From Psammoneis japonica (Eukaryota): a stretch of DNA of 64,000 nucleotides. A program made the translations under genes and the position numbers. Where the stretch lies: positions 803,138-867,137 of the forward strand of contig QPGO01000006.1 in NCBI GenBank assembly GCA_008632985.1, written 5' to 3'. Shown one piece after another: positions 10,522-37,063 of this stretch; positions within the stretch are counted from its first letter, which is position 1; each line of letters starts with the position of its first letter. The notes below the pieces were generated by a model. The model searched no databases. It was not told the origin of the DNA and saw only the letters and a list, made by a program, of their open reading frames with translations.

Positions 10522-11170
10522 ATGCCTGAAGCTTATCTTCGGAATTATACAACGCAACTTAGCAAATAATGATGCTCTCTAGAACGTCACACAAATTTGT
10601 GATGAGCTCTGCAGTAATACATTTACTTCAGTAAGAGCTCAGGTCTCAGCGTTTTGGCACATATCCTTGTTTTGCTTTTAGGCTCTTCTCAGAGTAGCTA
10701 ACAGCTTCTTATGCACACATCTCATTCACTGCATGATTGTCGAGGACGAGAACAGGTGGGACCTTGTCATCATGTGTGTCTAGCGGATAACGTTATTCCA
10801 TCGGTCCAATGTAAGCTCAACATGTTCGAGTGTACACAGTCAGTTTCCGAAGTTTCCTTCTTTTCGCCTCATCTCACATGATGTCGAGATGCGGTGTTCC
10901 ACAACCCTCATTTCACTGCAAAGTGGACCACAGCACCACTCACATCGCCGATTGTTTGGTTTTTTCCTGAGAGGTTCAACTTGAAATTGCAGAGTCCAAT
11001 GCCAAGAGTGGCAAAACCAAGCCCATGTTGGATTGCACGCAAACTGATGGTGCAATCCATCACCCCCTGGAGGATTGAACCATGGGCAGGAAATGTTGTT
11101 TGTGCTTCCTGCGCAAAACACACTGTCTTGATGCTTCTTTTAAGGCTTTTGGTTCAAACCATGCAGCCCA
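9698..11170 (+). repeat. Direct segmental duplication, copy 1 (3' part of the 941-aa gene plus downstream flank)
   Basis: cataccgcaataacgtg.ttcaccgcttcag at 9698 matches 15171. Similarity continues through the stop codon and on to gcttttggttcaaacc (~11145-11160 vs ~16591-16606). Confidence 0.95.
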
Positions 11171-12640: not shown

Positions 12641-12713
12641 GACGGCCAGACCGCCGGAATTCGCTCGTTTATTTTCTTTTTTTGATTTTTGATTTTGATC
12701 GTTTCTATGCTTC

Positions 12714-14987: not shown

Positions 14988-15170
14988 TGCATGCGCAGGA
15001 TCAAGGTTCGAAACGCAAAACCTACCGAACGTGGTTTGTTTATTCACTTGCACTCAAAAAACTTCGTAGTTTGATGGATGTCTCTGATGTAGCTCTGCCG
15101 TAATTTCTTAGTACGGGATTGAATCAGGAACGCTTTTCAATCCGCGGAGAGCGGTTCTAAACAGTCCTTT

Positions 15171-16620
15171 CATACCGCAATAACGTGGTTCACCGCTTCA
15201 GTCACGCCCTTCTCCAACTTGGTTATTCCGGTATGAATATGGACTGGAGCAAGTTGAACAGATGGATCGAGGGCAAATCTAGCAAGGTCATTCACCTTCC
15301 ACATGCTCGGATATCTTCGATACACCTTCGTATGATGATGTGGAACGACAAAACCAACTCAGTCGCCGCGGCAGTAACAAAACTTGATGTGGAACCGTTT
15401 ATTGGCGTCTCCAACACGACGTTTAGCTATGTGACCCGTTACTATTCCAAGACTGTCATGCATAATTCTCCTACCCTCATTTCAAACTCTGAAATTTTTG
15501 GAAGAACATTTGCGGATACGGTCCTTACAGCTGTTGGACCAGCAGTTCTCGCGGCAACCCCGATCGGCCCAGTTGCAGGGTTGGCGGCAGTCGTTGCCTA
15601 TGATGCAACCAAAGCAACCATCAACAAAGGTAAAGATAGGCGAAATGCTCGACCGGATGAACGAGGTAGGTTGACCGACTTCTCGGAAGGGCTCGTTGCG
15701 ACTGGAGTCGAAGCTGCTGCAGTGGGTCAACATCAAACGGTGACCGTGGAAGGAATGAAAGCCTATGCCAACGCCAAAGCCAACGAGACGCGAGAATATG
15801 CAGAAGAGAACAGAGCCCGGCTGGGTGCTGCAACCATTGGTGGCACGGTTACTGTTGGCGTGTCTTTTCTTGCTTCGCCTGCTATTGGCGTTCCAGCTGG
15901 GATTGCAGCAGCAGCAGTTACGCACAGGGCTATTGAGATGGATGAAAGAAGGCGCGAGAAGACGCTGGCAGAGAAGAAAGAAGAGTGAATGCCTGAAGCT
16001 CATCTTCGGAATTATACGACGCAACTTAGCAAATAATGATGCTCTCTAGAACGTCACACAAATTTGTGATGAGCTCTGCAGTAATACATCTAAGAGGTCA
16101 GGCCTCAGCGTTTTTTGGCACATTTCCTTGTTTTGCTTTTAGGCTCTTTTCAGAATAGCTAATAGCTTCTTATGCACACATCTCATGCACTGCATGATTG
16201 TCGAGGACGAGAACAGGTGGGACCATGCCCTTGTCGTCATCTATCTAGCGGAAAATGTTATCCCATCTGCCCAATGTAAGCTCAACTCGTTCGACTGTAC
16301 ACTGCCACTTTCCGAAGGTTCCTTCTTTTCGAAAAGTCTCAAATGATATCGAGATGCGGTGTTCCATACCCTTATTTTGATGCAAATTAGACTTTAGCGC
16401 CGCTCACTTCACAGTTCGCGATTTTTCGACAGGTTGAATCTGAAATGTCAGAGTGTAATGCCGAGCTGCAAAACTGAATCCATGTTGGATCTCACGCGCA
16501 AACTGATAGATGCGATAAGTCACCTCATGGACTCATGGAGGATTGAACCTTCTGAGAATGCCGGCACGCGAAACATGCAGTCGTGACAATGCTTTTGGTT
16601 CAAACCGTGCCATGCAATTT
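15171..16620 (+). pseudogene. Partial duplicate (copy 2) of the 941-aa gene C-terminus plus flank; 5'-truncated
   Basis: ORF 15185-15988 is nearly identical to the last ~260 aa of 7696-10521. There is a 12-nt deletion near the junction, and no upstream exons are seen. Confidence 0.85.
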
Positions 16621-16681
16621 GCTCACCAAACAGCAATGTTTTGGGATTCGCGGCAGAACGGCAGATACGGACATAATTACG

Positions 16682-18235: not shown

Positions 18236-19200
18236 GGTGAGAATCTTGCTGGCAGCAAGTAAAGGGCGCTTGCAGAGCACAGCGCAAGGCAGAGGGAATT
18301 CCTACCACGGGCAGGCAGCAGAGAGTACAGATAGAACTTTTGAAGACGCTCGCATCATTTATCTCAAGACGACTGTTCTGATTTCATTCACAGGCATGTC
18401 TCGAGGGCGTCAGCAAGCAAGTGGCTTGCTCTGCTCACTCTGCTTCCAAGGAATTCTTCGTCTCTACGGTATCTGCCGAGTGAGTCAGTGGAACTTTGTC
18501 AACTGCATCGGCGGAGGAGTCGATCGGCAACATTCTGTTTGTTGGCACGATTTCTTTTTCAGGCAGTTGACAATTTCAAATTATTTTTGGCGCGAAAAAG
18601 AGAGTAACGGAAAAATAATGGTTCTTATGTGTTCAAGTATGGGAACTAATGTCAATTGATAAGCTTAAAGAATGGATAGTAACAACTAAATTAACGGATA
18701 GAAAACCTCTAAGATGAAGATACTATTATGTCATTATGGGTTTGACAAAGGAATGTTATACCTTCCTACAGTGTGAAAATCATAAATAACTAAGATCAAC
18801 ATAGCATATTCACGGGATCAAATATTTTTGAAATTTTGCTCTTCCAACATGCCCGCGCGGACGATGACCAACCCGACATATTTGGCGAATATTTGTGTTA
18901 AAACTTATGTATACAACCTTTTGAATATATTTATGAACAACGGATGCTAAATTAAATAGAACCTCATAATTTAATGGTTTAGATATAGTTTTATTAAAAA
19001 CCTTAAGAGATTTACATAAATATTTTTTTGTATCACGTCGACAGAGCGCTTTTTTGAAATTTTGGCAGTTATCGATCGTGTAGAACTCACGTGAAATTTG
19101 GTCTTCACCCTTGCTTTACGTCACACGCCAAGCAGGCCTCACTTTTCCAACGATTCACTTTTCTGACGATCCAACAGAGGCTTACTATTGTTGGTTCACC

Positions 19201-20239: not shown

Positions 20240-22825
20240 TTAGTCTTCCACTTCTTCAGCCGCCTGTGCTATGGATGCCATATCTGCCGAAGAGACACTG
20301 AATAACGCTGTCGCCCTTCGAACCATTTCAGTTTCCGAAACAACCCTTTCGGGAAGCATGGGGCATTTTTCGATATCGACGCGATCAAACCTCCACATGC
20401 CCAAACACGCGGACGGTTCATCCTCGATGGACCCGTCAGGCTTTTGGATTAAAACTGCCAAATCAACCACTGTAGAAGTAAGGTTTCTCTTTACAATAGC
20501 AGCCATGCTGCGCATCGCCTTGCAAGACATGCAATCCAGCTCCACCTCAACCATGGGATGCATCACGGAGCAATTGCTAATGTCCTCCTCTCCTTTTGCG
20601 GTTACGGAGCGATGCCTTTTGTTCCATCGAACTGGCAAGATCGGACTGGCGATTGTGTATTCACCTTTTGCTGGAGCCAACATTTTCACAATCCGCGATG
20701 CGTCTACCACGGCAGGCAAGAATTTCAAACGTTGGTTGCGATATTCATCAGAGCCATTCAAAAACCGCTTTAGAGCCTTGACATCGTCCGGGTCGTCATC
20801 GTTTTCCACAATGTTTTCAAAGTCGTCAATGTACTCCGGCAAATCAAAGTAGATGAGGACATTTGCCCACTAATTAAGGAAGAGAGCACAGAAGAAAGAT
20901 GTAGAGTACGTTGGTGAAGCGCGTTCGTCAGTCCACACTACAACTTGTCTTTCGACCTTACCTGGAGCATGATATTAACGACCCACGACTTTCTATTTCT
21001 CAGCCCATTTCTGTTTTACGTATCAGAAGAGACGAGAGTTGTGAGAAAGTCATCATGCGCATGGAGACAGCTAAGAAGACTTGATAAAGACCATACATGT
21101 ACAAAACTTACTCGAGAAGGAAAGGATGAGTACCAATATCATCTTGGGCGCCCTCTTCTCCGGTCAAGTAAACATCCATGCCGCGCAGCTTCAAGAGCGG
21201 CTTGACAACACAATCCGCCAAGGTGTCTGCAGTGCATAAACTCAAATCAAAGTTACCCAAGCTATCCTTGACCTCATCTCCTACTTCTTGCTTTTGTTCC
21301 ATTTGTTCCTTTTCTTCTTCCGTCAGAATCGCTTCAATGTCTTTGCGCCGCAGCGTCGGGTCCCTATACATGGATCGCAACAAGGAAGGTGACCTGGAGG
21401 CACTCATATTGCGCTCCCAGTGCTGCTTCTTTCGTCGCGAGTGCTTCAGGTTGGTCCACAGTTGCTTGGTTTTGGAGTGCTCTGGGAAATGAAGATTCCA
21501 ATGAAGCTTTCTCGTGGCTGTTTTCGCAATGGAATGTCTTTCGCGTGGTCGTAAATCACTGCTGGATCGTTCCTTAACTAACAATGGTGCGGCTCCCGGA
21601 GATGATGGTTTGGTGGGTTCCACCGTAATTAAATCGGGTACAGCTTGCTCGGACGACTCGTGGTGAACGCGCTCTAGTTCTCGACCAACCATAAAGGCAG
21701 CCACCATCCACGCAATAGACACTACCATTGGAATTTGATTGGAAACAACCCGTTCCCAATAGACAATGGATGGAATTGCCGCCACCAGAAGGCTTGTCCC
21801 GATAATTATGGTAGAATCGCGCAGCAGAAAAGACGCCACCTTGCCAACACGAATCGCCTCATCATTGGAATCAGTACTAGAGACTCGACTCATTTGACTC
21901 TCTCTGGTGGAAGCTATTTCTTCTTCCAGAGGTGCATTGTCTGAGGCCTCGAAAATTTCAGACTCGTTCTTATCCGTGTCAAATTGAACGCGTGGCTTTT
22001 CCAACTCCTCACTTTCGGACACCTCGTCCGTCAGCGACTTTTTCTTTGTCATCTTCTCTTTTAACTTTTTCATCCCGGCGAATTTCGCGGATAATTCCGA
22101 ATCATCTGACTTTTCAGGTGAAACCCGCAATTCGTCACTTGCGGTCGCATTTTCGTCCGCAAAGGAAGTCTTTTTTGTCACCTTTGCTTTTAAATGTTTG
22201 ATACCCGAGAACTTCTTTGGCAATTCCGACTCTGACTTTTCAGAGTGCGGCTTTTCCAACTCGTCGCTCACCGACGACTCGTCTGTAAAAGACTTTTTCA
22301 TTGTCATTTTTTCTTTTAACTGTTTAATACCCGAGAACTTTTTCTTTGATAATTCCGACTCTGGTTTTTCGTCGCTTTCGGTCGCCTCGTCTCCAAAGGA
22401 ACTCTTCTTTTTCATCTTTGCCTTTAATGTTTTGACGCCCGAGAATTTCTTTGAGAATTCCTGTCATACAATCAACCGCAGCGTGAGTATAAGTTAAGCA
22501 TGTTATTTCCGAAATCGCATCCCATAACCCACAAGTCGAAAGTCGAAGAGTGTTTCTGAAACAGAATCCCACACAACACTTCTGAAAACTGTGAAAAATG
22601 CCACACAAAACAAACCGAAATTGACGCTTCTTGCTTCTGACAGAGAATTCGATTGCAAAAGCTCACCTCGGATACTCTGGAATGCTTCTTTTCGCCATCG
22701 ATCTTGGATGTTGATGGTGCTTCGTTCTCTGTTGTGAACTTTTCTTTTCTCTTGGAGGAGCCTGCCACCAACTTGTTCATCTTTTCCTTTGTGGAATCCG
22801 CTGCATGCTTTACCTTGGACATCAT
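20240..22825 (-). CDS. EDR2-C/DUF1336 domain membrane protein with Lys/Glu/Ser-rich N-terminal repeats; 4 exons
   Basis: Introns at 22666-22461 (GTGAGC..CAG), from 21111 (GTAAGT) and from ~20960 (GTAAGG). The C-terminal exon reads LKRFLNGSDEYRNQRLKFLPAVV...VEVELDC...VVDLAVLIQK..EPSACLGMWRF. Two TM helices lie in exon 2. Confidence 0.7.
21990..22450 (-). repeat. Four imperfect intragenic repeats (consensus KKFSGIKxLKxKMTKKxSFxDE..SDE)
   Basis: Visible in the translation of ORF 21108-22415 and as repeated cccgagaacttt/cccggcgaattt DNA. Confidence 0.8.
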
Positions 22826-23329
22826 TTTATCAGATCCAACTTTCGAAGTACTTGTTGCATCATTACTGTCCTTGACCTACATGCAGTCCCGTCATGGCAA
22901 TAAATTCACGAGACGCACAGTTAGTTCAACTAATACCATAGAAAAACCCGAGTCGTATCAGCGTAAGGAAACTTACATTACTGGCCTTGTCAACTTCTGA
23001 CTCCAAAGAGGGAGAGCCATTTTCAGTATCCATATTAGCGTTGTCCTTTGCTGCCTGACGCTTACGTTATTCGCCGCCGTTGCCTCTTCGTTTTTGTGCA
23101 TCGCATTGCGGCATCACGAACTATGACACTGTAAAGTGTTGGGTCTGCGGTCCGACAAAAATTTACAATCAAATTCTTAGGAGATGAATACTTTTGATTT
23201 GTGGCTGTTTTATTTCATGAACATTTATTTTGTGTATAAAAATATTATTATTTTTAATATGAATATATAAGGTACTGTCGGTTTTCGTTTCCTTCAACTT
23301 CAACGCCGCGTGAGCACAACGATGTTGTG

Positions 23330-26300
23330 ACTCTCACGCCATTTGAAGAGCAAACGGCACTTCCAAAAAGTCTTTGTCATTGTGAAGACAGAGGATGGCA
23401 CCTTGCTTGAAGCTCATTCTCTCAAAAGAGGGGACCATCAGAAGAGGGAGGATGGCAAGTGTGATGACTTGTGTCGCACTGCCAAAGCCCCACCAGACCC
23501 AGGTTTGTGTTTGCGAGGTTGCATCGCTGTTGAGAAAGGGGCATCTGTCCACAACCTTGGTGGGCTTTTGAGACACAATTGACCACATTCTCAGCCCACA
23601 CCACTCTTGCACAGCAGCAGCTCTTGTTCTTTCTGGCAGGATGAACTTCTCGCAATTTCATTGAGCCTTCCATTGCACCACACCCCCACAACCGGCTTGT
23701 GCTCTCCTTGCACAATTTGACATTTTGCTCTGACCCCAACGTTCAGAGTGCCCCAAATCTCTTCTTTTTTTTGTGAAACTGTTCAAGAAGCTGTGCAAAC
23801 TCTACCACCACAGGAATGTTGCACAATCTTCTATGTGGCTTTCCTTGCACTCTGTTGTTTTTGACCCAAGCTGTGCCAATGCCATGGTGGGTGCTGTTTT
23901 TGCAGGAAAACTGTGCACAAAAATGACCTGCTTTCAACAGCCAAGCTGAGAGACAAACACAGCAGTGCTTGCAAAAGTCACTCAAACAAAAACAAAGTGC
24001 AGAAATGAGTGTGTTTTTGAGGATGGAGAGAACTCGTTTGATTGAGATGACTTTTGGGGCTCAAAGTCGACTCTCAAGGGGGGTCATTCCCCCACTTTTT
24101 CTGTGGCTCATGGCATTTTGCCCAAACAGGTTGTGTGGTTTCAGATCAGAAAGAATGACACAACCCCTGAAAGCACTTCTCACACAGGGCACGGTGCCCC
24201 ACACATTGCACATTGCAGCCATTGTGCTTTTGTGAGCAGCAGATGGAAATGCAGCACTTTTGGCAAAATGCCCCAAACAATGTGAAAACAAACATGTTTC
24301 AGTTGGACCGAAGTGCAGTTGTTCGGAGATCAGGGAGTGGTGCAGCCATGTTGCTTGGCATGTTGGCATTCAAGTCTGCAAGTGCGCATTTGACAAAATG
24401 CATCCAGGAGCAACAAGTGCAAAATGTGCCAATCAGGATGGTGAAAACAAATGAAAATGTTGCACTTCCAACAAGTGAGTGTCTCAATTTCAATCTGGAA
24501 GGGGGTCGACCAATGTTTGCATGCACGTGCGTGCACTGTGAGATGGTGGGGTTTAACGACCTGTGACTCAAGGCCTTTTCTGTGGGTCTCTGATGGAGCA
24601 TGCTGCAATCCAAGAAAAAATGGCTGATGAGGAAAGAAAAAGAGCTGATTTTCATTGTGGCCTGGGTGTCAACAGCAGGCACCATGGAGAAAGATTGCTT
24701 TGACTGTGTTTGAATTTTCTGCATGTGTGCAGTGGTGCCAGATGTTTCTGGAGAGCTTTTTCTAAAAAAAAAGCTGGTGTGCTGGAAGCAGCTCAAATTT
24801 TCAATTGTTGGCTGGGGTGTGGCAACACAAGAAATCATCTGCATGATCCAAAGATCCACAATCTCAGCACATGCTTGCAGTTGAGGTAAAACTTTGTGGC
24901 TTGGCTGCTGCCATGTCACATCTTTGTCAAAGGCAAACCAGAAAAGCCATTGAGAACATGCCAAGAAGACATCAATGGGATGTGATCCAATGGCTGCAGT
25001 GGCACCTCCTGTTGGATTGCTTGTTGGAAAAAAATTGAGTGCTCAGCTGGACTTGTTGTCACTGAGACATGAGCCAAAGTTGGAGCCTCTGACCTCTTTC
25101 TTTCCAAAAGAGGAAAAGCCACAATCATGTCAGCTTTTCAGTCCATCAAATCCAAATGCATGGTTCTGTTCCATCAACTCTGCAAAAGTGCTCAATGATC
25201 TCCAGCTGGAAGAATTTTCTTGCTTCTGGCATGGGCTGTGCCATGATGACAAAAACCGTGTCACTCTCATCTTGTTTGTGATTTGACAAATGGATGTGGT
25301 GCCAAATGTGCACAGCTTTGTGAGAAAACAACGGAGTTGGTCAACAAAGCTTGGCACAGAAACCAAAAGAACACATTGCTGCTTCCATGTTTGCCAGAAC
25401 ACCAAAAGCACCTTGAATGCCACAAAGAGTGCAAAGCAGTTGCTCTTGCAGACCACATGAGCACTTGCTTTGTCTCAGCTTTGGCAGGATGGGGTGGAGT
25501 GATTGTGCAGACTTTTGACAGCTGTTCAAGTGGTTGTGTGAACCTTTGACTGCAGTTCAAAAGTGCACAAAACCCACATGAGTTTCAGGCTGGGGGGAGT
25601 GACTTGTTTGGAGCATTCTTGGGGTGTGCCTTGGGTGTGGTGCATTTGTGTGGGTTGTCTGTGATTGTTGGTTGCTGCAGGTGTTCATTGACATTTTTGA
25701 AATCTGAGTGGAGGTGTGTTGAGCAAACAACAATGGCCATCCATTGGATTTGTGCTCAAATGAAAGCAGTGCAATGAAGAAAATGTATCTGGACATTGAC
25801 AAAATGGGGGACAGTGTGCACGCACAGAAAACATGAAAAAAGTCAGCCATTCTAAACTCAAAAGCTTTGCCTCAATGACCCACTGGCTTCATTGCATGTG
25901 GCATTGTGTCATCTGGTCCCATTTGGCCTGCAGCCATTGTCGCTGCACAAGGAACATGCACCAGAGCACCACTTTGCACATCCATGGCAGGCCCAAAAGG
26001 TTGCCAGTTGCAGCTGTGTGTTCTTGAGAGAGATGCAACATTGTTTGATGGCTTGTGCACCACTCGCCTGTGTTGGAGTTTCATGGCTTGCCAACTGGCA
26101 CACGTTTGGTTTCATGAACCCCAAACTCACTGTGTGGCTTGCAAACACACTCCCAATGCCATTGACTGCTGTCACCATGCCAGCTGGGTGCAGAAGCTAA
26201 AAAGTGAGCACAAGACCTGCAACTCAACCCATGCTGCAAGCACAAAGAATTCACCAAATCATGCACAATTGTCAGCACATCTTGCACTGCAACATCATCT

Positions 26301-29300
26301 GTCTGTCCTGCAAAAACTGCCTCCTCTGGCCCCAATGTTCCAACACATTCCTTTGCACAAGCAGTCAATTGATTGGTCTCATGTGCATCAAGCATGGGAG
26401 GATGACACTTGGAAACCATGCCACCCAACACCACTTTGGCCACTCCATTGCTTTCCATGGCCCAAATCATCTGCGACTCTGACCATTGTCCACGCAATCC
26501 TTTTTCACATGCCCAACCTTGTCACATTTCCAGCACTCAATCTGCTTCTGCTTGTTCTGTGCACAACTTGCACTGTCAGATTTCTTGTTGGCCCCACAGG
26601 TGTCTAACACCTGCAATGCCTCCTTGGACGAATTGGGGCAATTGGTGTGCCCCACAGTGCAAACTGCTCACGCAGGTCTTTCAAGACATGCCAACATTCC
26701 TTGGTGCCTTCCAGTCATGGGCATTGCTGCCAACAACTTGTTTCTTTCTTTGTTCCAGGTGTCATCAGCATCCCCTTGCTGAGCCAATCTTCTTTCTTGG
26801 GGCTGCTTCTTCCAGGATGATCCTGCCACAGGAAATTTCCACCCACCTTGACAATGCTCATGAGCTGATCACACAATGATCTTGAAGTGCCTCCTTCATC
26901 TTGACAAATGAGTGCCAACTGCTTCCAAGCTTTGACCACCTGGGCATGTGGGTTTATCTTCTTGTTTGCATTGAACCAGATTGGCTTTTCCATTTTTCAA
27001 TGGTGCTGCCATGTTGCAGTCCTTCATGACTCTCATGAACTCCATCACTCCTTCAATCTTGTGATGAACAGCCTTTGCATGTTGTCCCACAATTGTTGCA
27101 TTAAATGCCTTCACCTTCTGTGTCTTGCAGAGATTGCATTCTGTTTCACACAGTGACCACATTTCTTGCCCCCAATTGCCTTCTCCTTCTCTGATGCAGT
27201 GTCTCCCAATGGATGCCTCAGAGACACCAGTGCACCTGCATGTCTGCCCTGAACATTCTTCTGACACACTCACTGCTGACATTCCTCATGGTTTCCATGC
27301 AACCATCTGCCTGTCATTCCCAATTGGCAATGGTGTCACACACTCACTCCTTTTGATCTTTTGTGATTCCGAACTCAGCTGTGTCCTTGCTCACATTTTT
27401 TGGGACCCATGTTGGAGCACGATGGCTTGCCAACAGTTGTGTGCTTGGCCTCACCAACTCTGACACAACCTCACCACACCCTCTTTCAGCAGACCCTTGA
27501 CAGCTTCTTCAACAGCAAGGCCAGTCACGACTGAATGTCATTCTGGTTGCAGAACACGACTGCAACCCAGAGACTCATTGATTTGCTTGGTTGATTGCAC
27601 AAAACGCTGTTTGAAAATCACAATGAACTTTTGCCACAATTTTTAGAATGACAACAATGACAACGTCTGTTTGCCTCATTGCCACTTGCATTGCAAACAA
27701 CCCACAAGAGCTTCATTCTCCCTGTCACATGATGGGACTGTTTCTCAACTGGGCCCTCCAGAGATCATTTGTTCACCCTTGTCCAGCCGGCTTGTTTGCC
27801 ACAATCCACCAACACAAGACACACCTTTGAACTCCTGTTGATTTCCCAGCCTTCGCCCTCAGATGCCTGATGACTTCCCCAGCCTTTGAATGACATCACT
27901 TCTTTGAGTGTCACATTTTTTGTCAGACCGTGATGCCACTTTGGAGCGAGTCTGGACACCTCAAAGAAGCACAAAATGCCGCCCAGTTGTTGCCAAACAT
28001 GATGTGGAAGAGAAAGGGCTTTTTGCCAAGCATGGTCCTTTTTGGTTGCCCTTGCACTGTGAAATTCCAAAACCCTTGCACTGCATGAAATTCCAAAACA
28101 CAAAAAAGTGGAGATGCTCATGCTTTGCCTTGGCAAGCTTGGATCTGCTTGCAAAGGGTTTGGGTTGCTCTGATTGAGTTTTTCTCGTTTGTCGCCACTT
28201 GGCCATGGCTTCTTGCACACTGCAATTGCATTTTTTGATGCGATTCAAATCAAGGGTGGTCCATCAAGTCCAAGTCATTTCATCAGAGTCACATGCATTT
28301 TAACATCACAACTCACCTCCGTCACAGAAATTCAAATCCATTTCTCCTTGCAAAGTGCTCATCTCATCTCTGCTCCATTTGTGGCCACAATTCCCACAGA
28401 GAGAACAGTTACAACACCAAGCTGTTTGTAACCTTGAGCAACTGCTCTCATCTTTGCAAAGCCACACTGCTGCCTGCTGCATCCTGCACAAGTTGTCTTC
28501 TCAAGAACATCTCCCATTGACTTGTTTTTGATTTTGCTGCACACATTTTGGCACTGCAGCCATGGGTCCCAACCCTGTGCTGCAGCCACATGTAATCACA
28601 AAACCCTGTTGTCAACAAAATGAACTCACACCAACCAACTGATGTTGCACCAATGTGGGCCTGCCTCCTCCCAGCAACTTTTGGGGCAAGCACACAGGGT
28701 TGGTTCATTCACAGAGTCATCACCAAAATTTGTCCCTCACACCATTTTTCCATGTGACAAAGTTGTTTTGTGAAAATCCAGCTTCATTTTCAAACACCCC
28801 CCATCAAATGCCATGAACAATGTGTGTCCACTGCACTCTCTTGCAAGACATTGGTTTAAAAAGTGCAAGACCAACAGCACCAACATCTTGTGCACTTTGT
28901 GGCTGTGGATGGGGTCAAAGTTCAGCTGGTTTTTCCAGAAAATTTTGAGTTGAGGAGTGGTTCATGCAAGATTTGCCAAGACAGATGATGGTGACATCAA
29001 CACAAGAAGACCTGCTCCAGCCATGGCAACATGATGTTCCATTGTCAGATCCATGGCTGGCCTCCTGACAGCTGTGGTGTTTGACCCAATGGGCCAAGCA
29101 GTCTGCAAAAACCCATTGCAAGAAGCAACACACTCTTCCATTTCTGGATCTGAGACTTGTGTCTTTGTAGCCAATCTGGTGTCCAGTCTGAGGATCAGTT
29201 CTGCATGGGTGTCCTGTCAGAACCATCAAATGGTCATTTGGCTTCAACCAATTTGAGGTTTTTGCCTCAATTGAGGTCCTTGGTGGACCAGACACCAGAG

Positions 29301-32300
29301 AGCAGATGCAAGCAAGGGAGGGGCTCAATTCACTCAATTTGTCACTCCACAGAGTGGCAGTGTCAGAACAACAATTTTGTGAACATTGGTTTGACTGCAT
29401 TTTTTCTTGAAGTTCACATCAACTTCCTTTTGCATTTTCACACCAATCCACTGGACTTTCTCCCATTCAAAAATGCTTGGCTGAACACATTGCAGCTCCT
29501 TTGTAAAAGTCTTGTGAAGAAGACTGAACACATGTGGTTGGCGCTGTTGCTCAAATTGATGACATGACAAGGAAGACATTGAATTCATTGATGTGCTCAT
29601 GTTGCTGACAGGAAATGCTGGCTGTGGTGGTGTGGAACACACTGAGTGTGCAACAACAAGAAGCAAAAGTGGCAAGACTTCTTGGATGCATTGAAGGTGC
29701 AATTTGGACTTCATCTTTGTTTGTCTTTTGCAGCCAGCAATGGCTTTGAGTCAGCAGGTGCCAAAAATCTGGTGCATGATTGGTGGGTGCAGTTGGCACG
29801 TGACATGACATCACCACAAATGACCAAATTGGTGTGTCTCAAAAATCTTGACAGAGAGTGGGTCTCTGATTGGACAACTTCAACTGTGTGTTTTGATGAG
29901 GATCCAACAGAGCTGCCCTTGCAACAGTGAAAAAATGCCCCTGACAGATTGCAATTTCTTGCACCTGTCACACATTGAGCCAAAAATGGGAGTCCATCAC
30001 TGAATCAACATGCACCGCTTCACCACTTCCACATCCCAACATTTAGAAGAAAAACAGTTTTGCATGGTCACAGTTGGGATGTGGGGTTTGGGGCAGGGGC
30101 CAGGGAGCGAGACTTTTGGCAAACTTCAGTTTGGGATGATCAAAGGCTGTGGTGTGACTGAGCGAGATTCCCCATTAAAAAAGTCAATCTGTGACAGGAC
30201 CAAGTTAATCTGTGAGGAGTTGGCACCCTGCAACAGTCCAAGAAACAACAAATGTTTAGAGACAGTCATCATCTTTTCCACTGCATCAATGTTGTCACCA
30301 ACTGCAGCAGGATTTTGTCAATTTCTCCATGTTGCCACTGCAGCAGTGTTCCATGTTCTCATCTGGAGCATGCCTGCCATGCCAGTTTGGAGTTGCTCAA
30401 GTGTTGGGCCTCACAGCAGCTGCACAAAGGCATTGTCTTTCAAGTCTCAACTGGCCATGATGAGCCTGCTTCCTCCTCCTCCTGCAATGACATCAACCAC
30501 CATGGGGCATCCTCTGCCCCTGCCCCCTCCTCTGCCAGAACAAGCTAACTGCTCTGTTGCACAGCAGAATCCACCCTGGGTGTGGTTGCTGCATGGGAAG
30601 TTCTCTGCTTGTGATGATGACTGTTAACTGACCCTTTGTCAACACCCCACTCTTTTGCCAATCAGAATCAGAACAAAAAGATCCTTCTTCACATCATCTC
30701 AAGCACAACCTGCATGATGCCAGTGACCTGTGCTTGATGATTTGATGGGAATTTGGAGCTGTTTTGCAGGGCAAAACCAATGGACTCAACAAAGACCATT
30801 GCAGTCTGGCAGTTCACACACCAGCTCACAAGCATTGAACAGAGCAGAGTTTTTTTGTCATGAAGCTTGTGGCGCTGAGATCATGAACCTCTTTGCTTGC
30901 CTCTGCAGTTTTGACATTGAGGAGGTCATTGCCAAAAGAGTGTGTTCAATGAGCCAATTGTGCTGCAGACAATGCAGTGCACTGTGATTGTGAGCATGTG
31001 ACACCAACCTCACTTGCCTCATCATTAAATCTTGCATCTCCCACCAGCTTCATGATGAGAAGATTGAGGCCCAATTTGGCCACATGCCACTGTTCCAGCA
31101 CCGCTGTCCAGGCCAGTCATTTTTGCAATGGCACTCAGAGACATTCAGGGCATCTGCCATCATCCGTGACACATTGGCCAAGCCCACAAAAGCTTTGCTG
31201 GTTTGTCAATTGACTCCTGTGCTGGCAAGAGCATTCCTGAGTTTGTTGCCAAAGTGCTTTGTCTTTTGCCAAGATCCTCCTCTCCAGACTGGGTGCACAC
31301 TCCTGGTCATGCTCAGATCTGACCTTTTTTGAAGAAAGTCATGAAGGAGACATCTGGCAAGACATTTGACCACATGGTTTTTGCCAAGCTCTAGACAAGG
31401 TTGCCACCATGCAGCGCAAGTGTGTCAATTGAATGATCTGCTCTGCTTGTCCAGGGTGTGGAGATGGTGGCACACTGTTTTTGCTTCTTGACAATGTGCA
31501 ACATGTTCTTGCAATGTGGAGCACAGCACACACTCTGTGCTGAGAACAACTGGCAGATGTTCCAGCAGTGTCTTGTGTCATGTGGTCACCTGCAGGGGTG
31601 TGTGTGTGTGTGTGATCCCAAAAGTGCATGTGATTGTGGAAGCCCATGCAGTTTGCACTCATTCCACTGAGCAGATGCATTGACATGACTGTGCACACCA
31701 ATTGTGAGTGAACCACATCATGAGGAGATCATGCATTTGTCTCCCCCCCTCCAAAGTTGCACCTGGCAAGCAAAGGCTCTGCACATGATGCCATGTGCTG
31801 TTGCACAGTGTTTGCTGAGAACCAAGGTGAACTTTGAGTGAAGTGCTTTGTTTTTGAATCATGAGAACATTCAAGCACATTGAAGTGTGTGAAGCAAAAC
31901 ACACAATTCACACAACCAAGCATTTCATGGCAAAATGTGCCAACTCAGACACAGCTCTCACAGTTTGCAACAACAGCAATCTTTGCAAATGAAGCAAAAA
32001 GCGCATGTTTGATCTGGGCTGTTTTGACAGAAGTGTCAACCTGTTGTGTCATTGAAGCTTTGAGAGAGAAGCTCCTTGAGAGAGAGCACGCCAATGCATG
32101 AACAGCCAAGGAGCAAGTCTCAGCTTTGTTGTTTTGGAAGCAAGGGGGGGATCTTTGATTTTCTTGATTGAGCACAGAGCCCTCACTCCTGACTCTGAAC
32201 GCACACCTCAGAAGCTTTTTCTGTTGCTTGATGATCTCCTTGACAGAAAAAAAAGAGAAAAAGAGAGTTCAAATGTCACATTGTGACAAGGTGCAGATGC

Positions 32301-32940
32301 TGAGAGACCACAAACTGGGCATTCTCACACTTGTTTGGCAGACATTTCAAGTCACAAGCCAGTTGCCAGTTGCATGAGACATGAAATGTTGATTTGGGAA
32401 CTTCCACTGGACTTTGTGGATGGCAGCAAGGTCTCTGCAAAAAGCACCTTTCTGTGTTCTGGTGTGCAAGACCATGTCATGATCACTTGGCAAAGATGTG
32501 GGGCCATGCACGCAGCTGGGCCCATTGCACATTCTTTAATTTTGATGACAATGCTGGGACAAACAAAGATGATTGCTTCGGGATTTCTTGTCAGATTTCA
32601 TGGTTGAGGAGGAAGAAAAAGAGAGCTCCATGATTCACTCAGTCACTCCAACAGACCTTTTGGATGTGAGCTCAGCCTGCACATCTTGGCAGTGCTTGGC
32701 AATTGGCACCTGCAACATGGCCAGCAATGATGGTGGTGAAATGCTTTGCCTTTTGATGCACGTTGGGACCATGCCTCAGGCAGGTGCACCCAGCTTTTCA
32801 GCCCAAGGTGACAGGGAAAAAAGAAAATGATGGGCATGACAACAGTGAGCAAAAGGTGTGCCAGTTTGTGGAATGAGAGAGGAATTTCATTTCTGTTTTT
32901 ACAACTGAGAAGGAGATGAGGCTGACGGTCAACCTGGCCA
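23330..32940. other. Hypermutated CpG/TpA-depleted domain D4 (nested TE relics)
   Basis: About 9.6 kb with TA and CG both rare. Edges are sharp at ~23330 and ~32950. Confidence 0.9.
25830..27653 (-). mobile_element. Degenerate Ty1/Copia (CoDi-like) LTR retrotransposon: candidate short 5' LTR, gag with zinc knuckle, possible pol remnant
   Basis: CCHC knuckle CWKCDKVGHVKKDC (~26490-26535). Gag-like segments QADGCMETMRNVSSECV and KVKAFNATIVGQHAKAVHHKIE. A weak PDDTM.HAMK motif near 25900. A 118-bp TG...CA segment at 27536-27653. No second LTR was found. Confidence 0.55.
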
Positions 32941-34575
32941 CTGTTCGGATGTGTCACCTCTGGCGAAAATTGTGACGAAGCCCGGTCAGTGCTCCCCCGG
33001 CTGCGACTAAAGCGGAGTGTTTATGTCATGCTCGCTGAGCAGACGTCTATGCCTTTTCAGCACAGGGTCAATGCAACATATCGTGCAATGATGGAATCTG
33101 GCGTTCAAGACGGACTAACGGTCCGTTGAAATGATTATTTGTTAGCCACGATATCGAAGTGCAGTGAAGGAATTTGGTGAGCGTGTTAGAGCTATGCTGT
33201 CGCATCGATTCTCTAAAGCAAATTTCTATCTTTATCGGCTACTGTCATGTATAAATCTTCTCATGAAACCACCCTTGAACACCAAAACGCTCTCGATTGG
33301 TTTGTAGCACTTCATGTGGCAGCGACACGGAATCAAACAAAACGAGCGTTCCCGCTCGAGGTACAATGTCTCGGATTCGTTCTCCACCATCCTCACCCTG
33401 CGGACCAACACTCTTGTTGTTGTTGAAAGAGATTAGCGATTTGGGAGCATCAATCAAGTGGAAACGATCCCGGTCTCGTGGATCGTCCACCATGAGTTTA
33501 CGAGCCATGGCGTCACCACCGGCCAAGTAGAGTGCAATGTTGGCAAAGGGCTTTTGGGACAAGTCGCGCTTCTTGCCATTTCGATCCATGGTGTACAACA
33601 TGCAAGTTTCATTCTCGGGTCCTTCGCGGGAGGGATCCAAAAAGACGGGTTGTTCTCCTTGGTCGTTGGTGGTAGCTCGGAGCCAACCGACTTGAAGATC
33701 ATTGCGTCGAGCACCGACTCGAGATGACGCTGGAAAAGCACGTTCGTGAAGTCTCAATTGACCACCGTCTTGTTCGGACCAATCGTCATTGAGGTAAATG
33801 AGCCACGTAATGGATCGTCGAGAGGCATTTGGTTTGAGTGGGAGTTTGGATCCATTGGGTCGTTTCAGTTCCAAATGATGCTCATCCGTGTGTCTAGCCA
33901 ACAGAGCGCCCTCGCCGTACCGTAAATATTCCATTTCATGTGTTTGCGCCACATCGTTGGCAAGAGTCGGTCGATCGGTCAAGCCTTTGGCCAAGACAGC
34001 CTTGACCTGAGCCATTTTGAGTTTGAGAGTCTGACGCAGTTCGTAATTGCCGACTTGTGGGTCGACAAAGGGCCCGTCTCCACCGGCGGATGAAAAACTC
34101 GGCATGATCCAACGATCATTGGCAGCTTTATCCGCCTTGTTGGGGTTTCTCGATAGAATAAAATTGGTAAAACTACCCGATTCAAAGCAGTTCTTAACGT
34201 CGTCACACACGGCCCGAGTTTCATCCGGCGTCAGCCAGTTGGGTATAATCACGGCACGACCCTCCTCGATTTGTTCCAGAGTTCCGGGTGGAAGAATGTC
34301 ACCATTAACATTTGTTTCAACAGCGACTACTGCAGTTTCCACTGCTCGACGCCATGCGGCTTCGGCACCCAACCCGGCAAGCGAAGCAACCATGGCTTGA
34401 CGACGAGACAGAAAAGACGACAGTCCTTTTTTCTTTTCAACAAAAGTTTCCTCATCGCTGCACTCTTTTGCAAAGCATCTCGTGTTTAGCAGTCTGTCAC
34501 TAGTATAAGCATCAGTTGTTGTTGGTTGAAATCCATTCCAAGCATCGACAGTGCACAACAACACAACAAGACATA
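32570..34575 (-). repeat. Inverted segmental duplication, copy 1 (2OG oxygenase gene plus 3' flank)
   Basis: The reverse complement aligns by eye with 57040-59015 along its length, apart from small deletions. Confidence 0.95.
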
Positions 34576-34618
34576 TAAGCGCTGGAATCGTCACCATGGT
34601 TGGCATGCGGCGCCTCAT
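33245..34618 (-). CDS. 2OG-Fe(II) oxygenase (prolyl-hydroxylase-like), probably plastid/thylakoid-lumen targeted
   Basis: Intact 457-aa ORF with YLRY.EGALLARHTDE (HxD), RSITWLIYLNDDW..DGGQLR and PRAGTLVLFDS..LPHEV..T.RERF..GWF. Signal peptide ..TVDA-W and a twin-arginine-like SRRQAM. Confidence 0.85.
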   Translation of the reverse strand: MRRRMPTMVTIPALICLVVLLCTVDAWNGFQPTTTDAYTSDRLLNTRCFAKECSDEETFVEKKKGLSSFLSRRQAMVASLAGLGAEAAWRRAVETAVVAVETNVNGDILPPGTLEQIEEGRAVIIPNWLTPDETRAVCDDVKNCFESGSFTNFILSRNPNKADKAANDRWIMPSFSSAGGDGPFVDPQVGNYELRQTLKLKMAQVKAVLAKGLTDRPTLANDVAQTHEMEYLRYGEGALLARHTDEHHLELKRPNGSKLPLKPNASRRSITWLIYLNDDWSEQDGGQLRLHERAFPASSRVGARRNDLQVGWLRATTNDQGEQPVFLDPSREGPENETCMLYTMDRNGKKRDLSQKPFANIALYLAGGDAMARKLMVDDPRDRDRFHLIDAPKSLISFNNNKSVGPQGEDGGERIRDIVPRAGTLVLFDSVSLPHEVLQTNRERFGVQGWFHEKIYT

Positions 34619-34830
34619 TTTTGTGCGTTTGCTCGCGAACGTCGCATTGAAATCAGAAGTGGTCGCGTGTGCTGCGAGACGCGCGCTTTTCTCGCGCGCT
34701 CGCCTCGCGCTCGCTTATGGATCCGAAGATCGAAAGACCGACCATGCTAGAGCATGGGCGAAGACATTCTGGAATTCGCACATCGTTCGTCGCCTTCATG
34801 TTTTCACCACATTGTTCTGCAGCAACGGCA

Positions 34831-35754
34831 ATGAAGCTACCTTTTGGAATGACTGCAGCAGCGGCGATTGGAGTACAGGGAAGAAGCAGTGGTAGTTGTG
34901 CAAGCGCTTCCTATGAGGCACGAATCTACACACTCGCATCTAGCATTCAACCCAAAATCTTGCTACCGTTGCGTGGCTCAGGCAACTATGGAGAATCGGG
35001 AACTTCCGCCTTTTATACAATTGATCAATTGCCACCGGCTCTATCAAAAATGGCATCATCATCTATGTCAAAACTGGAACGACACGATATAGATTTAGGA
35101 CCGGATCGTTTGGCCTTTACCATTGACAATGTTCTTTCTCACGACGAAGCCGATGCGTTGGCTGCGTGTGCAGAAGCGGTTTTGAAAGAAAACGGCCACT
35201 CTCGACTTGCTCCAGGCATTCAGACACCACCTGGAATGAGAATCAACGAGGCTGCTCATTGGTATCCCTCTCATCGAATTGCTCCAATGTTTTTAGGACC
35301 ACTTTTAGAACGCTTTCAACACTTGGTCCCACCGACATTGGGAGGTCTGAAATTGTTTCCAAAATTGTCAGAAAAGGTGGCACAATTCAAGTACACAACG
35401 GGAGATCGATTCAATCGTCATGTCGATGGCTTGTTTCCCGGACAGGGAGCCAGTCCGGATGGAAATGGTATCGATGAATGGGAGGGGGTCGTCTCGGGCA
35501 TGTCTGTTTTATTCCATCTCAATGACGAACCAAACGATGGACTGCAAGGCGGTGAAACACGCCTTTGGTCGGCGGATGGCTCTCGTCATGTGGATATCAA
35601 GCCTCAAAAGGGACGAGCTCTCTTTTTTCGACGGGGTAGCCGGGATGCCGTGTTGCATGCCGGTCTACCCGTGACGGGAGAGATTCCAAAGTACATGGCA
35701 CTCATCAATTTGGCGTATGGAGAACAAACAGGTACATCGTCCATGAGGAGATGA
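34831..35754 (+). CDS. 2OG-Fe(II) oxygenase (P4H-like, 2OG-FeII_Oxy_3 type); start codon uncertain
   Basis: Motifs FTIDNVLSHDEA, FKYTTGDRFNRHVDG, SVLFHLND....GGETRL, PQKGRALFF and LHAGLPV..KY. Confidence 0.85.
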   Translation: MKLPFGMTAAAAIGVQGRSSGSCASASYEARIYTLASSIQPKILLPLRGSGNYGESGTSAFYTIDQLPPALSKMASSSMSKLERHDIDLGPDRLAFTIDNVLSHDEADALAACAEAVLKENGHSRLAPGIQTPPGMRINEAAHWYPSHRIAPMFLGPLLERFQHLVPPTLGGLKLFPKLSEKVAQFKYTTGDRFNRHVDGLFPGQGASPDGNGIDEWEGVVSGMSVLFHLNDEPNDGLQGGETRLWSADGSRHVDIKPQKGRALFFRRGSRDAVLHAGLPVTGEIPKYMALINLAYGEQTGTSSMRR

Positions 35755-35905
35755 TGTCTCCGATGCAAAGCATAAAGTCACAACACCCCAGAATGATAAG
35801 GCTTCTAATATTTAAGTGCGGTACCGCGCGGGATTGATTCGGCATTGGACTGAAGCATTAAGGATAGCTTCAGGATAGAGTATCGCAGCAACGCAAACCA
35901 CTGCA

Positions 35906-36381
35906 TTAAGAATAGTAAATTACTTCCCCATTAACTCCTGTCCGAATAATGGGTTCCACTCCGACGAGATCATGAATCTGTCGTACAAGGGCGTTTTTGA
36001 AATCTTCTCTGCCCTCGAGACGCTCCTGCTCACTGCTGTAGTATGGATCTTTTGTGGTGGCGTTAGATGGAATGAGGCGTCCTCGACCCTTTCTAAAAGC
36101 GAATAGGACTGAACGTACAAGGTCAGTGCTGCTAATTGAGACGGATGTCGTGCCATCGGAGTACATGAAGCTAGGGCCCTACCAATGGACGCATTCGCGA
36201 TTGCAAACTCGAGCGCCTGCATCTTCAACTGCCTTTTGGATGCATTGGATAGTTCTTCTTTCAACAGAACAATCTCGTCCTTCATCGCCTGCACACTTTT
36301 TTCAATGTCCGATAAGGAAGCTTGGATCACGGTCGTTGCATCAATGACGATGCATTGCACGCTGTTATTCGGGTCGTCCAT
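35906..36381 (-). CDS. Small hypothetical coiled-coil protein, frameshifted
   Basis: ORFs 35920-36381 and 35906-36166 appear to join by a frameshift into one coding-like sequence. No family was recognised. Confidence 0.35.
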
Positions 36382-37063
36382 GGTGGTAGTGGCAGTGAAA
36401 ATGAAGCAATCTACCCCTGCAATGCCAGCCAGAGAGTAGGCCTCCTAGTAGCTAGAGAAGCTACTTAGCTACTTAGAGTAGCTCTCTACTCTAGAGAGCT
36501 AGCTCTAGTACTCGAGCTATTGGTCAATGAAATTTTTGTGTGCCAATGATTGTGCTCCACGTGTATGATGGAAACGGCTAGGATTTTAGGGGACAGGTTA
36601 CCGGTACGGAACCGATGCCGACAAATTCTCCATCCTTGACAGAAAAACCAAAAAAGAGTGTCAGCATCCTCACCAAATGGGCAGGACGCATCCAGAGTCG
36701 GGTGCACTGACTCAAAAAATAGCTAGGTAGATCGAGATGTACGAGGTACCCTGTCAAAGAGCATCCGTACTGTAGTTTTATCTTCATGTTTTTTCTTTCG
36801 TCGCTTTCGTTCAAACGCACAGTGTCGCACGCAATGTATTGCAGACCCTCTAGAGTCAGATCTTGATATGTGAGTAAGCTTGGGGTGTGCAATTTTGATA
36901 CTCTACTTTCCACTCAAACATACTCTAGTATCTAGAAAAGCCAATGACTTGCTCAAGAGTAGTAAATTACTACTCCACGAGCGTCTGTTATGATAACGAC
37001 TTCCACTCCCGAGGCATTGCACAACATTATTTGCTTTTCTTGAATTCATTAATTTAGTCGAAA

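Follow-up and report, generated by a model that had tools for sequence, protein, structure and literature searches.

Domains of a diatom genome depleted of both CpG and TpA: evidence for position-restricted transitions acting in place

In a 64,000-nucleotide stretch of the genome of the diatom Psammoneis japonica (GenBank assembly GCA_008632985.1, contig QPGO01000006.1, positions 803,138 to 867,137; hereafter the window, with positions counted from its first letter), six sharply bounded domains have lost almost all of their CG and TA dinucleotides and gained CA and TG instead. Domain 4, hereafter the main domain, is the one that an earlier reading of the sequence (the original prediction) had flagged. 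Comparison of an intact gene with its dead copy, of a retrotransposon relic with its homologues and of duplicated segments that straddle or flank the domains leads us to conclude, with high confidence, that the depletion arose at the DNA level and in place: transitions on both strands at CpG (fastest at W-C-G, where W is A or T) and at T-A-Y/R-T-A (Y, pyrimidine; R, purine), restricted by position, after the affected sequences had arrived where they now lie. For the TpA arm of this process, enzymatic deamination of adenine would be the most likely route.

Results

Six domains with a common composition

Domains were called with 500-bp sliding windows and a density segmentation, and change-points were fitted separately for CG and for TA. 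Six CG- and TA-depleted domains occupying ~31 kb, about half of the window, were found where the original prediction had placed them, by all three approaches; its example of a single TA in 2041-2400 is consistent with the 100-bp profile. The segmentation intervals were 1695-3482, 6295-7487, 10849-12373, 23305-32998, 44710-45888 and 47195 to ~63700, and the outer limits adopted here are given in Table 1. All six domains share one composition. The ratio of observed to expected (o/e) CG is 0.16 in depleted and 1.03 in normal sequence, while TpA, as had been claimed, is also lower in the domains than outside (0.06 versus 0.56); CA stands at 1.80 versus 1.21 and TG at 1.83 versus 1.16, with a GC content of 47.4% versus 46.5%.

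The losses and gains nearly balance. Pooled depleted sequence (30,808 bp) holds 126 TA, 285 CG and 6976 CA+TG, against 1218 TA, 1681 CG and 4447 CA+TG in 30,155 bp of normal sequence, which by simple arithmetic amounts to a deficit of ~2550 CG+TA and a surplus of ~2433 CA+TG. The total of TG equals that of CA in each domain. The main domain, taken as 23340-32900, retains 28 TA and 57 CG in 9561 bp.

At 10 of the 11 borders, 26-140 bp separate the CG change-point from the TA change-point; for the main domain they fall at 23356 (CG) and 23274 (TA) on the left and at 32926 (CG) and 32900 (TA) on the right. Long open frames begin or end 30-330 bp away from the borders, and a 1.4-kb island of normal sequence carrying a sulfotransferase frame (45993-46961) separates domains 5 and 6. 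When CG and TA were tabulated jointly in 300-bp windows, the distribution was bimodal: low CG with high or normal TA occurred in 0 windows, and 16 windows combined intermediate CG with at most 2 TA. Only at the right edge of domain 1 do the two disagree (CG 3300, TA 3779). Both edges of this domain (1000-1200 and 3300-3780) lack TA with CG near normal; 3300-3400 contains 5 CG and 0 TA, and on the right TA stays absent for ~480 bp past the recovery of CG. The TA arm may extend beyond the CG arm there, or the two arms may be separable.

Agreement of sequencing reads with the window

The depletion is real sequence, not an assembly artefact. A public run, X1, contains 94% of the sampled words of 23101-33100, and its exact 31-mer contigs, with a word depth of 56-72, cover 21001-37000 in eight long pieces with 2 differences in total. 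Each border of the main domain is spanned by a single contig (21001-24306 on the left, 32705-33558 on the right) with 0 differences. Exact 31-mer contigs at such depth are unlike the output of noisy long reads. Reads that restored TA and CG at these positions would have spoken for an artefact, and the X1 contigs instead agree with the window.

The two single-copy differences between the window and X1 in these 16 kb are a G>T at 31795 and a difference at 24887, in the single-copy part of the main domain. At the latter the window has T (gg-T-aaa, GTAA, an R-T-A context) and the sole X1 contig has C (depth 67.7/67.7). This may be a polymorphism produced by the same mutation process and, if so, is the lone hint of continuing activity.

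Direction of change in a duplicated oxygenase gene

Self-comparison of the window showed that 32566-34593 is repeated in inverted orientation at 57022-59015 with 82% identity. The first segment includes an intact 2-oxoglutarate (2OG)-Fe(II) oxygenase gene in normal sequence (copy A), and the second, inside domain 6, is a copy with frame-breaking gaps relative to it (copy B). Over the comparison span, 33000-34593, copy B keeps 17 of the 102 CG of copy A; of the 85 lost, 41 became CA and 35 became TG (76 together). TA fared at least as badly, with 3 of 46 kept and, among the 43 lost, 21 changed to CA and 15 to TG (36 together). Each of the 3 TA in copy B matches a TA of copy A, and 17 of its 18 CG match a CG there.

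With the strands folded, T>C occurred at 38 of 92 TpA sites, compared with 15/227 at TpC, 9/230 at TpG and 17/240 at TpT (41/697 for other T sites; Fisher p=2.6e-18). The original prediction had proposed a second, TpA-specific A:T>G:C process beside CpG decay, with TA>TG/CA enriched over other A>G changes, and these counts bear it out on both points. C>T was likewise concentrated at CpG, 77/204 versus 10/233, 10/158 and 11/161 in the other contexts (31/552; Fisher p=9e-26). A single change removes a dinucleotide from the target class, and these values are therefore at saturation. From the surviving fractions we estimate -ln(3/46)=2.7 changes per dinucleotide at TpA and -ln(17/102)=1.8 at CpG, so that the TpA rate is not lower than the CpG rate and, with a background of 4-7%, is at least ~45 times the background transition rate.

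Sequence context of the two arms

The outcome at TA depended on its flanks. Between copies A and B, RTAR sites changed to CA in 12 of 14 cases and YTAY sites to TG in 8 of 11; RTAY sites were split (5 CA and 4 TG of 10), and the 11 YTAR sites hold all 3 surviving TA. With strands folded, T>C at TpA affected 30 of 45 sites preceded by a purine and 8 of 47 preceded by a pyrimidine (p=1.9e-6). Domain-wide survival, expressed as the depleted/normal ratio of counts per kb, was 0.005-0.026 for ATAC, ATAT and GTAC and 0.16-0.41 for CTAG, CTAA and TTAA. The flank-dependent outcome and this survival pattern together define the target of the TA arm as the duplex trinucleotide 5'-TAY/5'-RTA, in which RTA becomes RCA or, which is the same, TAY becomes TGY, while YTAR is largely spared. 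ApA is not raised, T>C at TpT (that is, A>G at ApA) being like that at TpC.

Flanking bases also ordered the CpG changes: C>T affected 37/75 TCG, 23/52 ACG, 9/35 GCG and 8/42 CCG sites. The change is thus favoured by a 5' W over a 5' S (G or C; p=3e-4) and not by T alone, and SCGS sites survive best (8/16).

A retrotransposon relic whose ancestor had TA and CG

Domain 6 contains a near full-length relic of a non-LTR (long terminal repeat), long interspersed nuclear element (LINE)-like retrotransposon on the minus strand. An exhaustive profile search with its apurinic/apyrimidinic (AP) endonuclease frame found 557 relatives (best E=7e-32), some of ~1900 residues. When the 23 of the 150 listed relatives with at least 600 residues were used as tblastn queries, 76 of 76 matches fell at 50403-56163 on the minus strand. 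The reverse-transcriptase part was missed by Pfam and found only by this tblastn search with homologues.

Codon changes in the relic show that its ancestor contained TA and CG. At the 59 aligned tyrosine positions of its nearest homologue, P0122, the relic has His at 14, Cys at 14, Phe at 8 and Tyr at 6; as a control, P0122 itself has Tyr at 174 and His at 29 of 490 tyrosine positions of eight other homologues. The 125 Arg positions of P0122 are represented in the relic by Arg (23), Gln (14), Cys (12), Lys (11), stop (8) and His (7), and 36 of 82 in-frame stops of the relic, pooled over nine homologues, align to Arg. An alignment of the endonuclease domain with 27 of the 150 listed hits has six conserved Tyr columns, of which 4 hold Cys or His in the relic, and seven conserved Arg columns, of which 6 hold Cys, Trp or Gln. 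The tyrosines of the element and of its endonuclease domain thus join the oxygenase pair in indicating that TE and gene ancestors had TA, as the original prediction supposed. The equal numbers of Tyr>His (sense T>C, 14) and Tyr>Cys (sense A>G, 14) mean that both strands were mutated, and editing of the sense transcript is thereby ruled out. Frameshifts, stops and ~3% transversions are found in copy B as well as in the LINE relic, which are therefore old dead copies.

Two of the relatives of the LINE, the LINE-type endonuclease proteins P0210 and P0272 from European Nucleotide Archive metagenomes, have 0.2% Tyr and show Q-H-H-W-C-C at the six conserved Tyr columns, with Arg retained at 6 of the 7 conserved Arg columns; they may carry a TA-only hypermutation footprint from another organism. 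A metagenome locus (L001) retrieved with a single-protein query was set aside as a chance match of normal composition.

Mutation in place, after arrival and by position

The stretch 32566-32940 next to the oxygenase gene is depleted in both copies of the duplication. Its 335 aligned dinucleotides include 9 TG<->CA double differences, compared with 9 of 1553 where one copy is depleted (p=0.0017). Such discordant outcomes mean that these sites were still CG or TA at the time of duplication and were then resolved independently. TG/CA swaps among repeat copies were also seen in the reads at 26167-8, 26173-4 and 26763-4. The right border of domain 4 crosses this one continuous duplicated segment, the flank being mutated and the oxygenase gene not.

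A second duplication, recent, direct and 1.45 kb long, takes in the 3' part of a 981-codon open reading frame (ORF; 7576-10518, no Pfam family) and its flank, and its second copy forms a 275-codon ORF (15161-15985). In the normal part identity is 96% across the initial 0.8 kb and 90% across the 0.4 kb that follow, with 54 of 60 CG and 40 of 46 TA kept. Over the 265 aligned bases inside domain 3, identity is 71%, and 4 of 14 CG and 0 of 6 TA are kept.

The targets observed in the domains comprise the LINE relic, high-copy repeats and a host-gene pseudogene with its flank, most of the main domain being unidentified. The intact oxygenase copy A and the duplicates outside the domains are untouched, and genes 30-330 bp from the borders are spared. 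As domain contents were mutated whatever their kind and their outside duplicates were not, the target is set by position and not by homology. The name 'reverse RIP' (repeat-induced point mutation) under which the phenomenon was first proposed is therefore misleading: homology is not the trigger, and neither the intact gene copy nor the duplicate in normal sequence was touched.

Contents of the domains and neighbouring genes

Equal lengths of sequence contain 62 TAA and 34 TAG stops in the domains (96) and 296 and 235 outside (531), while TGA numbers 783 and 505, respectively. The scarcity of TAA and TAG makes stop-to-stop frames of 100-370 codons abundant on both strands of the depleted domains, where gene finders may call false genes. 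Among 165 domain frames scanned against Pfam (23 frames of 137 aa or more and 142 of 85 aa or more), only the AP-endonuclease frame passed the curated cut-off; sub-threshold matches to DUF7324, DUF7231, Vps5 and WHIM1 were dismissed as weak. No recognisable protein relic was found among the open frames scanned in the main domain, nor were tandem, direct or inverted repeats found in it. The claim that every recognisable TE relic lies inside the domains was upheld only weakly: the single recognisable element, the LINE at 50403-56163, does lie inside, and the main domain is without a protein relic.

High-copy sequence does occur in the main domain (24205-24738 and 25807-27942), at a depth of up to ~1600 versus ~56. 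Word-indexed protein searches with a 242-aa frame in the high-copy repeat and with the AP-endonuclease frame gave no matches. A 66-bp piece of the main domain (30006-30071) was matched, with 4 differences and 2 gaps, by a 601-base contig of depth 629.5 from a second public run, X2; a very abundant sequence elsewhere shares this piece. X2 is RNA-like: one of its contigs covers 21112-22459, 22666-22874 and 22975-23096 and skips the sequence between, as expected of a spliced transcript with two introns. Its contigs are present on the flanking genes, with next to none on the main domain, and we did not use this as evidence of silence. Domain 6 includes a diverged tandem duplication (47410-48401 and 48489-49444; 59% identity over ~1 kb).

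Gene families recognised by Pfam in the window are EMP70/TM9SF, an Rce1-like protease, an ankyrin protein, a sulfotransferase and two 2OG-Fe(II) oxygenases. Identity between the TM9SF protein and the 120 matches listed is 72-82%, and the organisms named among these matches are all diatoms (Triceratium, Grammatophora, Odontella, Trieres, Helicotheca and Ditylum). The two oxygenase genes (PF13640) adjoin the main domain and are divergently placed at 33248-34714 (minus strand) and 34651-35751 (plus strand). As TET/JBP-like candidates they were rejected, being prolyl-4-hydroxylase (P4H)-like with weak PDB matches to P4H and to hypoxia-inducible factor (HIF) prolyl hydroxylase. Neither Rfam families nor tRNAs were found in the window. 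An ORF of 451 codons without a Pfam family (21111-22463, minus strand) has internal repeats of ~125 bp with 66-70% identity at 21994-22461, and an AT-rich spacer in normal sequence (18501-19000; GC 33%, 46 TA per 500 bp) lies at the extreme opposite to the depleted domains.

Table 1. Positions of the depleted domains and of the sequences compared with them.
Feature	Position	Strand	Remarks
Depleted domain 1	1214-3779		CG-depleted core 1214-3300; TA depletion 1295-3779
Depleted domain 2	6306-7436		Ends ~140 bp before the start of the 981-aa ORF at 7576
Duplication copy 1	9698-11175	+	96% identity to copy 2 up to ~10500; 71% inside domain 3
Depleted domain 3	10834-12670		Occupies the spacer between two long ORFs; left 300 bp is a duplication copy
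Duplication copy 2	15171-16621	+	Wholly in normal sequence; 16345-16621 is the counterpart of the left 300 bp of domain 3
Depleted domain 4 (main domain, flagged finding)	23274-32926		No recognisable protein relic
High-copy dispersed repeat in domain 4	25807-27942		Summed contig depth up to ~1600 vs ~56
Gene-duplication segment depleted in both copies	32566-32940		375 bp; 9 TG<->CA double differences in 335 aligned dinucleotides
Intact 2OG-Fe(II) oxygenase gene, copy A	33248-34714	-	489 codons, prolyl-4-hydroxylase-like, normal sequence; unmutated comparator
Depleted domain 5	44753-45859		Found by windows, segmentation and change-points
Depleted domain 6	47285-64000 (window end)		Composite: LINE relic, pseudogene, unidentified sequence
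Near full-length non-LTR (LINE-like) retrotransposon relic	50403-56163	-	Matches P0122 residues 36-1929 of 1934; frameshifts, stops
LINE AP-endonuclease open frame	55315-56223	-	Exo_endo_phos, E 1.8e-9
Hypermutated dead copy B of the oxygenase gene with 3' flank	57022-59015	+	In domain 6; 82% identity to 32566-34593

Discussion

Proposed mechanism

The two arms of the process would have different chemistry. In the model that we favour, the CpG arm would be the deamination of 5-methylcytosine (5mC) in methylated, silenced DNA; one source mentions a diatom retrotransposon with methylation in the CpG context (PMC2806351). The TpA arm would be enzymatic: a deaminase-fold enzyme, of the TadA/ADAT type or another, would gain entry to the silenced domain or be recruited by it and, at T-A-Y on either strand, deaminate adenine to hypoxanthine. 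The target would be set by a chromatin or methylation domain. Both arms would irreversibly destroy coding capacity (Tyr to His or Cys; Arg to Cys, Trp, Gln, His or stop) with no change in GC content.

Within the in-place model, adenine deamination at T-A-Y is the most likely route for the TA arm, with about an even chance of being correct. We favour it because the rate and the motif imply an enzyme, because TadA reads U-A-C-G and because the authors of the one precedent, discussed below, argue for an ADAT2-like enzyme. The whole statement, with the adenine-deaminase step included, seems to us evenly poised between right and wrong.

Several points weigh against this reading. The sequence does not distinguish an attack on A from one on T, since T-A-Y is R-T-A on the opposite strand. 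In most substrates of eukaryotic ADAT2/3, A34 is followed by a purine, which mismatches the 3' pyrimidine preference found here. The paralogue sample is small (46 TA and 102 CG), and the main domain is without an unmutated comparator except in its last 375 bp. The domain stretch of the second duplication, with only 6 TA and 14 CG and with many transversions and gaps, is weak support when taken alone. Finally, X1 may be the source sample of the assembly, its platform is not recorded, and it is not fully independent.

Alternative explanations

The first alternative places the attack on thymine. A TET/JBP-type or other enzyme would make 5-hydroxymethyluracil (5hmU), 5-formyluracil or a further modified base at R-T-A, which would mispair with G and give T>C. 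R-T-A and T-A-Y are the same duplex site and all of the sequence results fit equally well; 5-formyluracil, moreover, is mutagenic towards T>C. Early work on Crypthecodinium cohnii placed 5hmU in TA and TC contexts, and in Breviolum minutum it is enriched on repeats, although without sequence preference (PMC11071213). Reports of 5hmU or base J in diatoms were not found in our literature search. TpC is not raised here (15/227), and the oxygenase genes adjoining the main domain are prolyl-hydroxylase-like rather than TET/JBP. We regard this explanation as unlikely.

A by-product of synthesis or repair in silenced chromatin, through either error-prone, Pol-eta-like WA>WG patch repair that follows T:G mismatches or a mismatch glycosylase that always resolves T:G to C:G as very-short-patch repair does, is an improbable source of the TpA arm. 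That TA loss always stands beside CG loss, with no window of low CG and normal TA, fits a dependence on 5mC deamination, and very-short-patch repair is known to deplete CTAG in Escherichia coli. The Pol-eta signature, however, includes ApA, and T>C at TpT (17/240) is no higher than at TpC (15/227; TpG, 9/230), which disfavours a candidate that the original prediction had put forward. TA loss is also at least as complete as CG loss (3/46 versus 17/102 kept), which is hard to obtain as a side effect of CpG repair, as are the 16 windows with intermediate CG and at most 2 TA. We know of no glycosylase context that the strict R-T-A-Y rule would fit.

Still less probable is a process with no dedicated enzyme, in which 5mC and adenine at the poorly stacked TpA step are deaminated spontaneously and base excision repair is excluded from compact silent chromatin. 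TpA is the least stably stacked step, and the sharp, gene-hugging borders look as if a chromatin state set the rate. Against this, spontaneous deamination of adenine is far slower than that of 5mC, while the TpA rate here is at least ~45 times background and exceeds the CpG rate; nor, to our knowledge, does the heterochromatin of other eukaryotes lose TA. The comparable process in Bigelowiella natans, furthermore, is on in some lines and off in others (10.64898/2026.01.13.699255).

A-to-I hyperediting of retroelement RNA by an ADAR-like enzyme, made permanent when the transcript is reverse-transcribed and integrated, is contradicted by the comparisons above and is very improbable. ADARs prefer a 3' G and are metazoan, and a purine 3' of the A is disfavoured here: 3 of 3 survivors are YTAR, and CTAG, CTAA and TTAA survive best (0.16-0.41). 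One domain element is a LINE, and ADARs favour a U 5' of the edited A (10.64898/2026.01.13.699255). The LINE strands, however, are equally hit (Tyr>His 14, Tyr>Cys 14), a border lies within a continuous duplicated segment, copies were mutated independently after duplication, and the changes extend to a 3' flank that is not transcribed and to half of a genomic duplicate.

We hold it just as improbable that the transitions are long-read basecalling errors at heavily modified bases (5mC at CG; N6-methyladenine, 6mA, or 5hmU at TA) which passed into the assembly. Such misreads are typically C>T and A>G, and the platforms of the assembly and of X1 are not recorded; yet the eight long pieces in which exact 31-mer contigs of X1 cover 21001-37000 show only 2 differences, and the frameshifts, stops and ~3% transversions of copy B and the LINE mark them as old dead copies. 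That the domains are foreign or viral DNA always free of CG and TA can be dismissed almost outright: the main domain does lack recognisable genes and, for most of its length, an unmutated comparator, but ancestors had TA and CG wherever they could be inferred (gene copy, LINE, second duplication, discordant TG/CA outcomes), six domains have the same composition, and the idea is contradicted for domains 3, 6 and the right end of domain 4.

Significance

A:T>G:C change that is limited to one dinucleotide and to marked domains goes counter to the GC>AT bias usual in mutation. The saturated footprint in a diatom suggests a process widespread in algae of the SAR group (stramenopiles, alveolates and rhizarians) rather than a single-strain curiosity. 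We propose, tentatively, that diatoms have a dedicated, chromatin-guided mutator that converts adenine (or thymine) at R-T-A-Y, acting on both strands of double-stranded DNA and accompanied by methylation-driven CpG decay, as a form of editing-based immunity that would be homologous to the process of Bigelowiella and ancient in SAR. If so, no natural deaminase or T-modifying enzyme before the one responsible would have been found to make A:T>G:C changes across chromosomal DNA domains. The R-T-A-Y rule and the link with CpG decay constrain any candidate enzyme, some diatoms are genetically tractable and the enzyme could be hunted there, and a natural A>G activity on chromosomal DNA would interest base-editing research. 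In practice, the domains are hidden from GC plots, as the original prediction had anticipated, and give RIP indices of the wrong sign; false ORFs are inflated in them, and TE annotation by protein similarity fails, with one Pfam family above cut-off among 165 ORFs.

Comparison with known systems

RIP, known from Neurospora and other ascomycetes, turns CpA into TpA and so raises TpA; it is triggered by duplication and hits both copies. Like RIP, the process in the diatom domains is a hypermutation by transitions, one that inactivates repeats for good and can be recognised by its dinucleotide footprint. Both RIP indices are nevertheless reversed here: TpA/ApT is 0.072 in depleted versus 0.586 in normal sequence, and (CpA+TpG)/(ApC+GpT) is 1.98 versus 1.235. 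Duplicates outside the domains are untouched and a border runs inside a duplicated segment. The spared duplicates and the reversed indices together show that this is not RIP. RIP is premeiotic and RID/DNMT-dependent. DNMT4, which is related to the RIP and MIP (methylation induced premeiotically) enzymes, has been reported in some diatoms (PMC9998398).

Ordinary 5mC decay resembles the CpG arm, with CG changed to TG or CA in silent, repeat-rich DNA and C>T concentrated at CpG (77/204 versus 31/552 elsewhere), but it explains only one of the two arms. A RIP-like hypermutation at TpCpG in Pucciniomycotina, including Microbotryum, is attributed to Horns et al. 2012 in a later source (PMC5381629). 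It too is C>T at CpG in TE copies with a 5' T preference; here, by contrast, ACG is nearly as susceptible as TCG, and a TpA arm is not described in that source.

The TpA arm has an enzymatic likeness in TadA/ADAT2-3 and the adenine base editors derived from them, which deaminate an A preceded by U or T. Natural TadA/ADAT enzymes act on tRNA loops or single strands, unlike the process considered here, and we know of no natural enzyme that deaminates A across double-stranded chromatin domains. Bacterial TadA recognises U33-A34-C35-G36, that is, T-A-C (PMC10586758), and this U-A-C-G fits T-A-Y.

From dinoflagellate 5hmU the diatom process differs in that TpC is unaffected. 5hmU is not known to be mutagenic in dinoflagellates and is not known from diatoms. 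The likeness lies in a thymine modification in TA/TC contexts (C. cohnii) and on repeats (B. minutum), according to one account (PMC11071213).

The nearest precedent is a preprint by Mettrop et al. on TpA-specific hypermutation of integrated DNA of nucleocytoplasmic large DNA viruses (NCLDV) and virophages in B. natans (10.64898/2026.01.13.699255). In mutation-accumulation lines of this alga, 231 of 302 nuclear mutations fell in integrated giant-virus and virophage regions; 230 of these 231 were A>G or T>C, the GC-biased ones all on TpA according to the authors, and the rate of ~6e-7 per site per generation, about 1000-fold above background, was seen in some lines only (10.64898/2026.01.13.699255). 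The genome has 124 TpA-poor, CpA+TpG-rich clusters enriched in reverse-transcriptase and endonuclease domains, and the authors propose an ADAT2-like DNA deaminase, citing amphioxus and trypanosome ADAT2 acting on DNA (10.64898/2026.01.13.699255).

The diatom domains share with B. natans the A:T>G:C change at TpA, giving TpG or CpA by strand, and a TpA-depleted, CpA+TpG-enriched footprint. Both processes keep to discrete regions, which consist of selfish or foreign DNA there and include a LINE, repeats and a host pseudogene with its flank here. B. natans is a rhizarian (a chlorarachniophyte), whereas the host here is a stramenopile. The footprint is near saturation in the diatom, with a TA o/e of 0.06 compared with a Rho of 0.45 given for an NCLDV region in the preprint. 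CpG loss always accompanies TpA loss here (76 of 102 CG changed to CA or TG), while 'CpG' and 'diatom' are absent from the available text of the preprint; the spectrum in the window is not almost free of C>T, the two arms being equally prominent. Among the targets here are a LINE and a host pseudogene, and the R-T-A-Y rule is not found in that same text, which does not use the word 'trinucleotide'.

The prominence of the CpG arm thus sets the diatom process apart from plain membership in a B. natans-type system. The original prediction knew of no description of the process. One does exist for the TpA arm, in the 2026 B. natans preprint, whereas a full-text literature search found none of TA loss in diatom repeats or of its coupling with CpG loss; papers on diatom TEs held no passage on it, and an apparent 'TpA' match in PMC4504042 proved to be the word 'Tpase'. 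New here are the diatom host, the motif rule and the coupling with CpG decay, added to a TpA arm so far reported once, in an unrelated alga.

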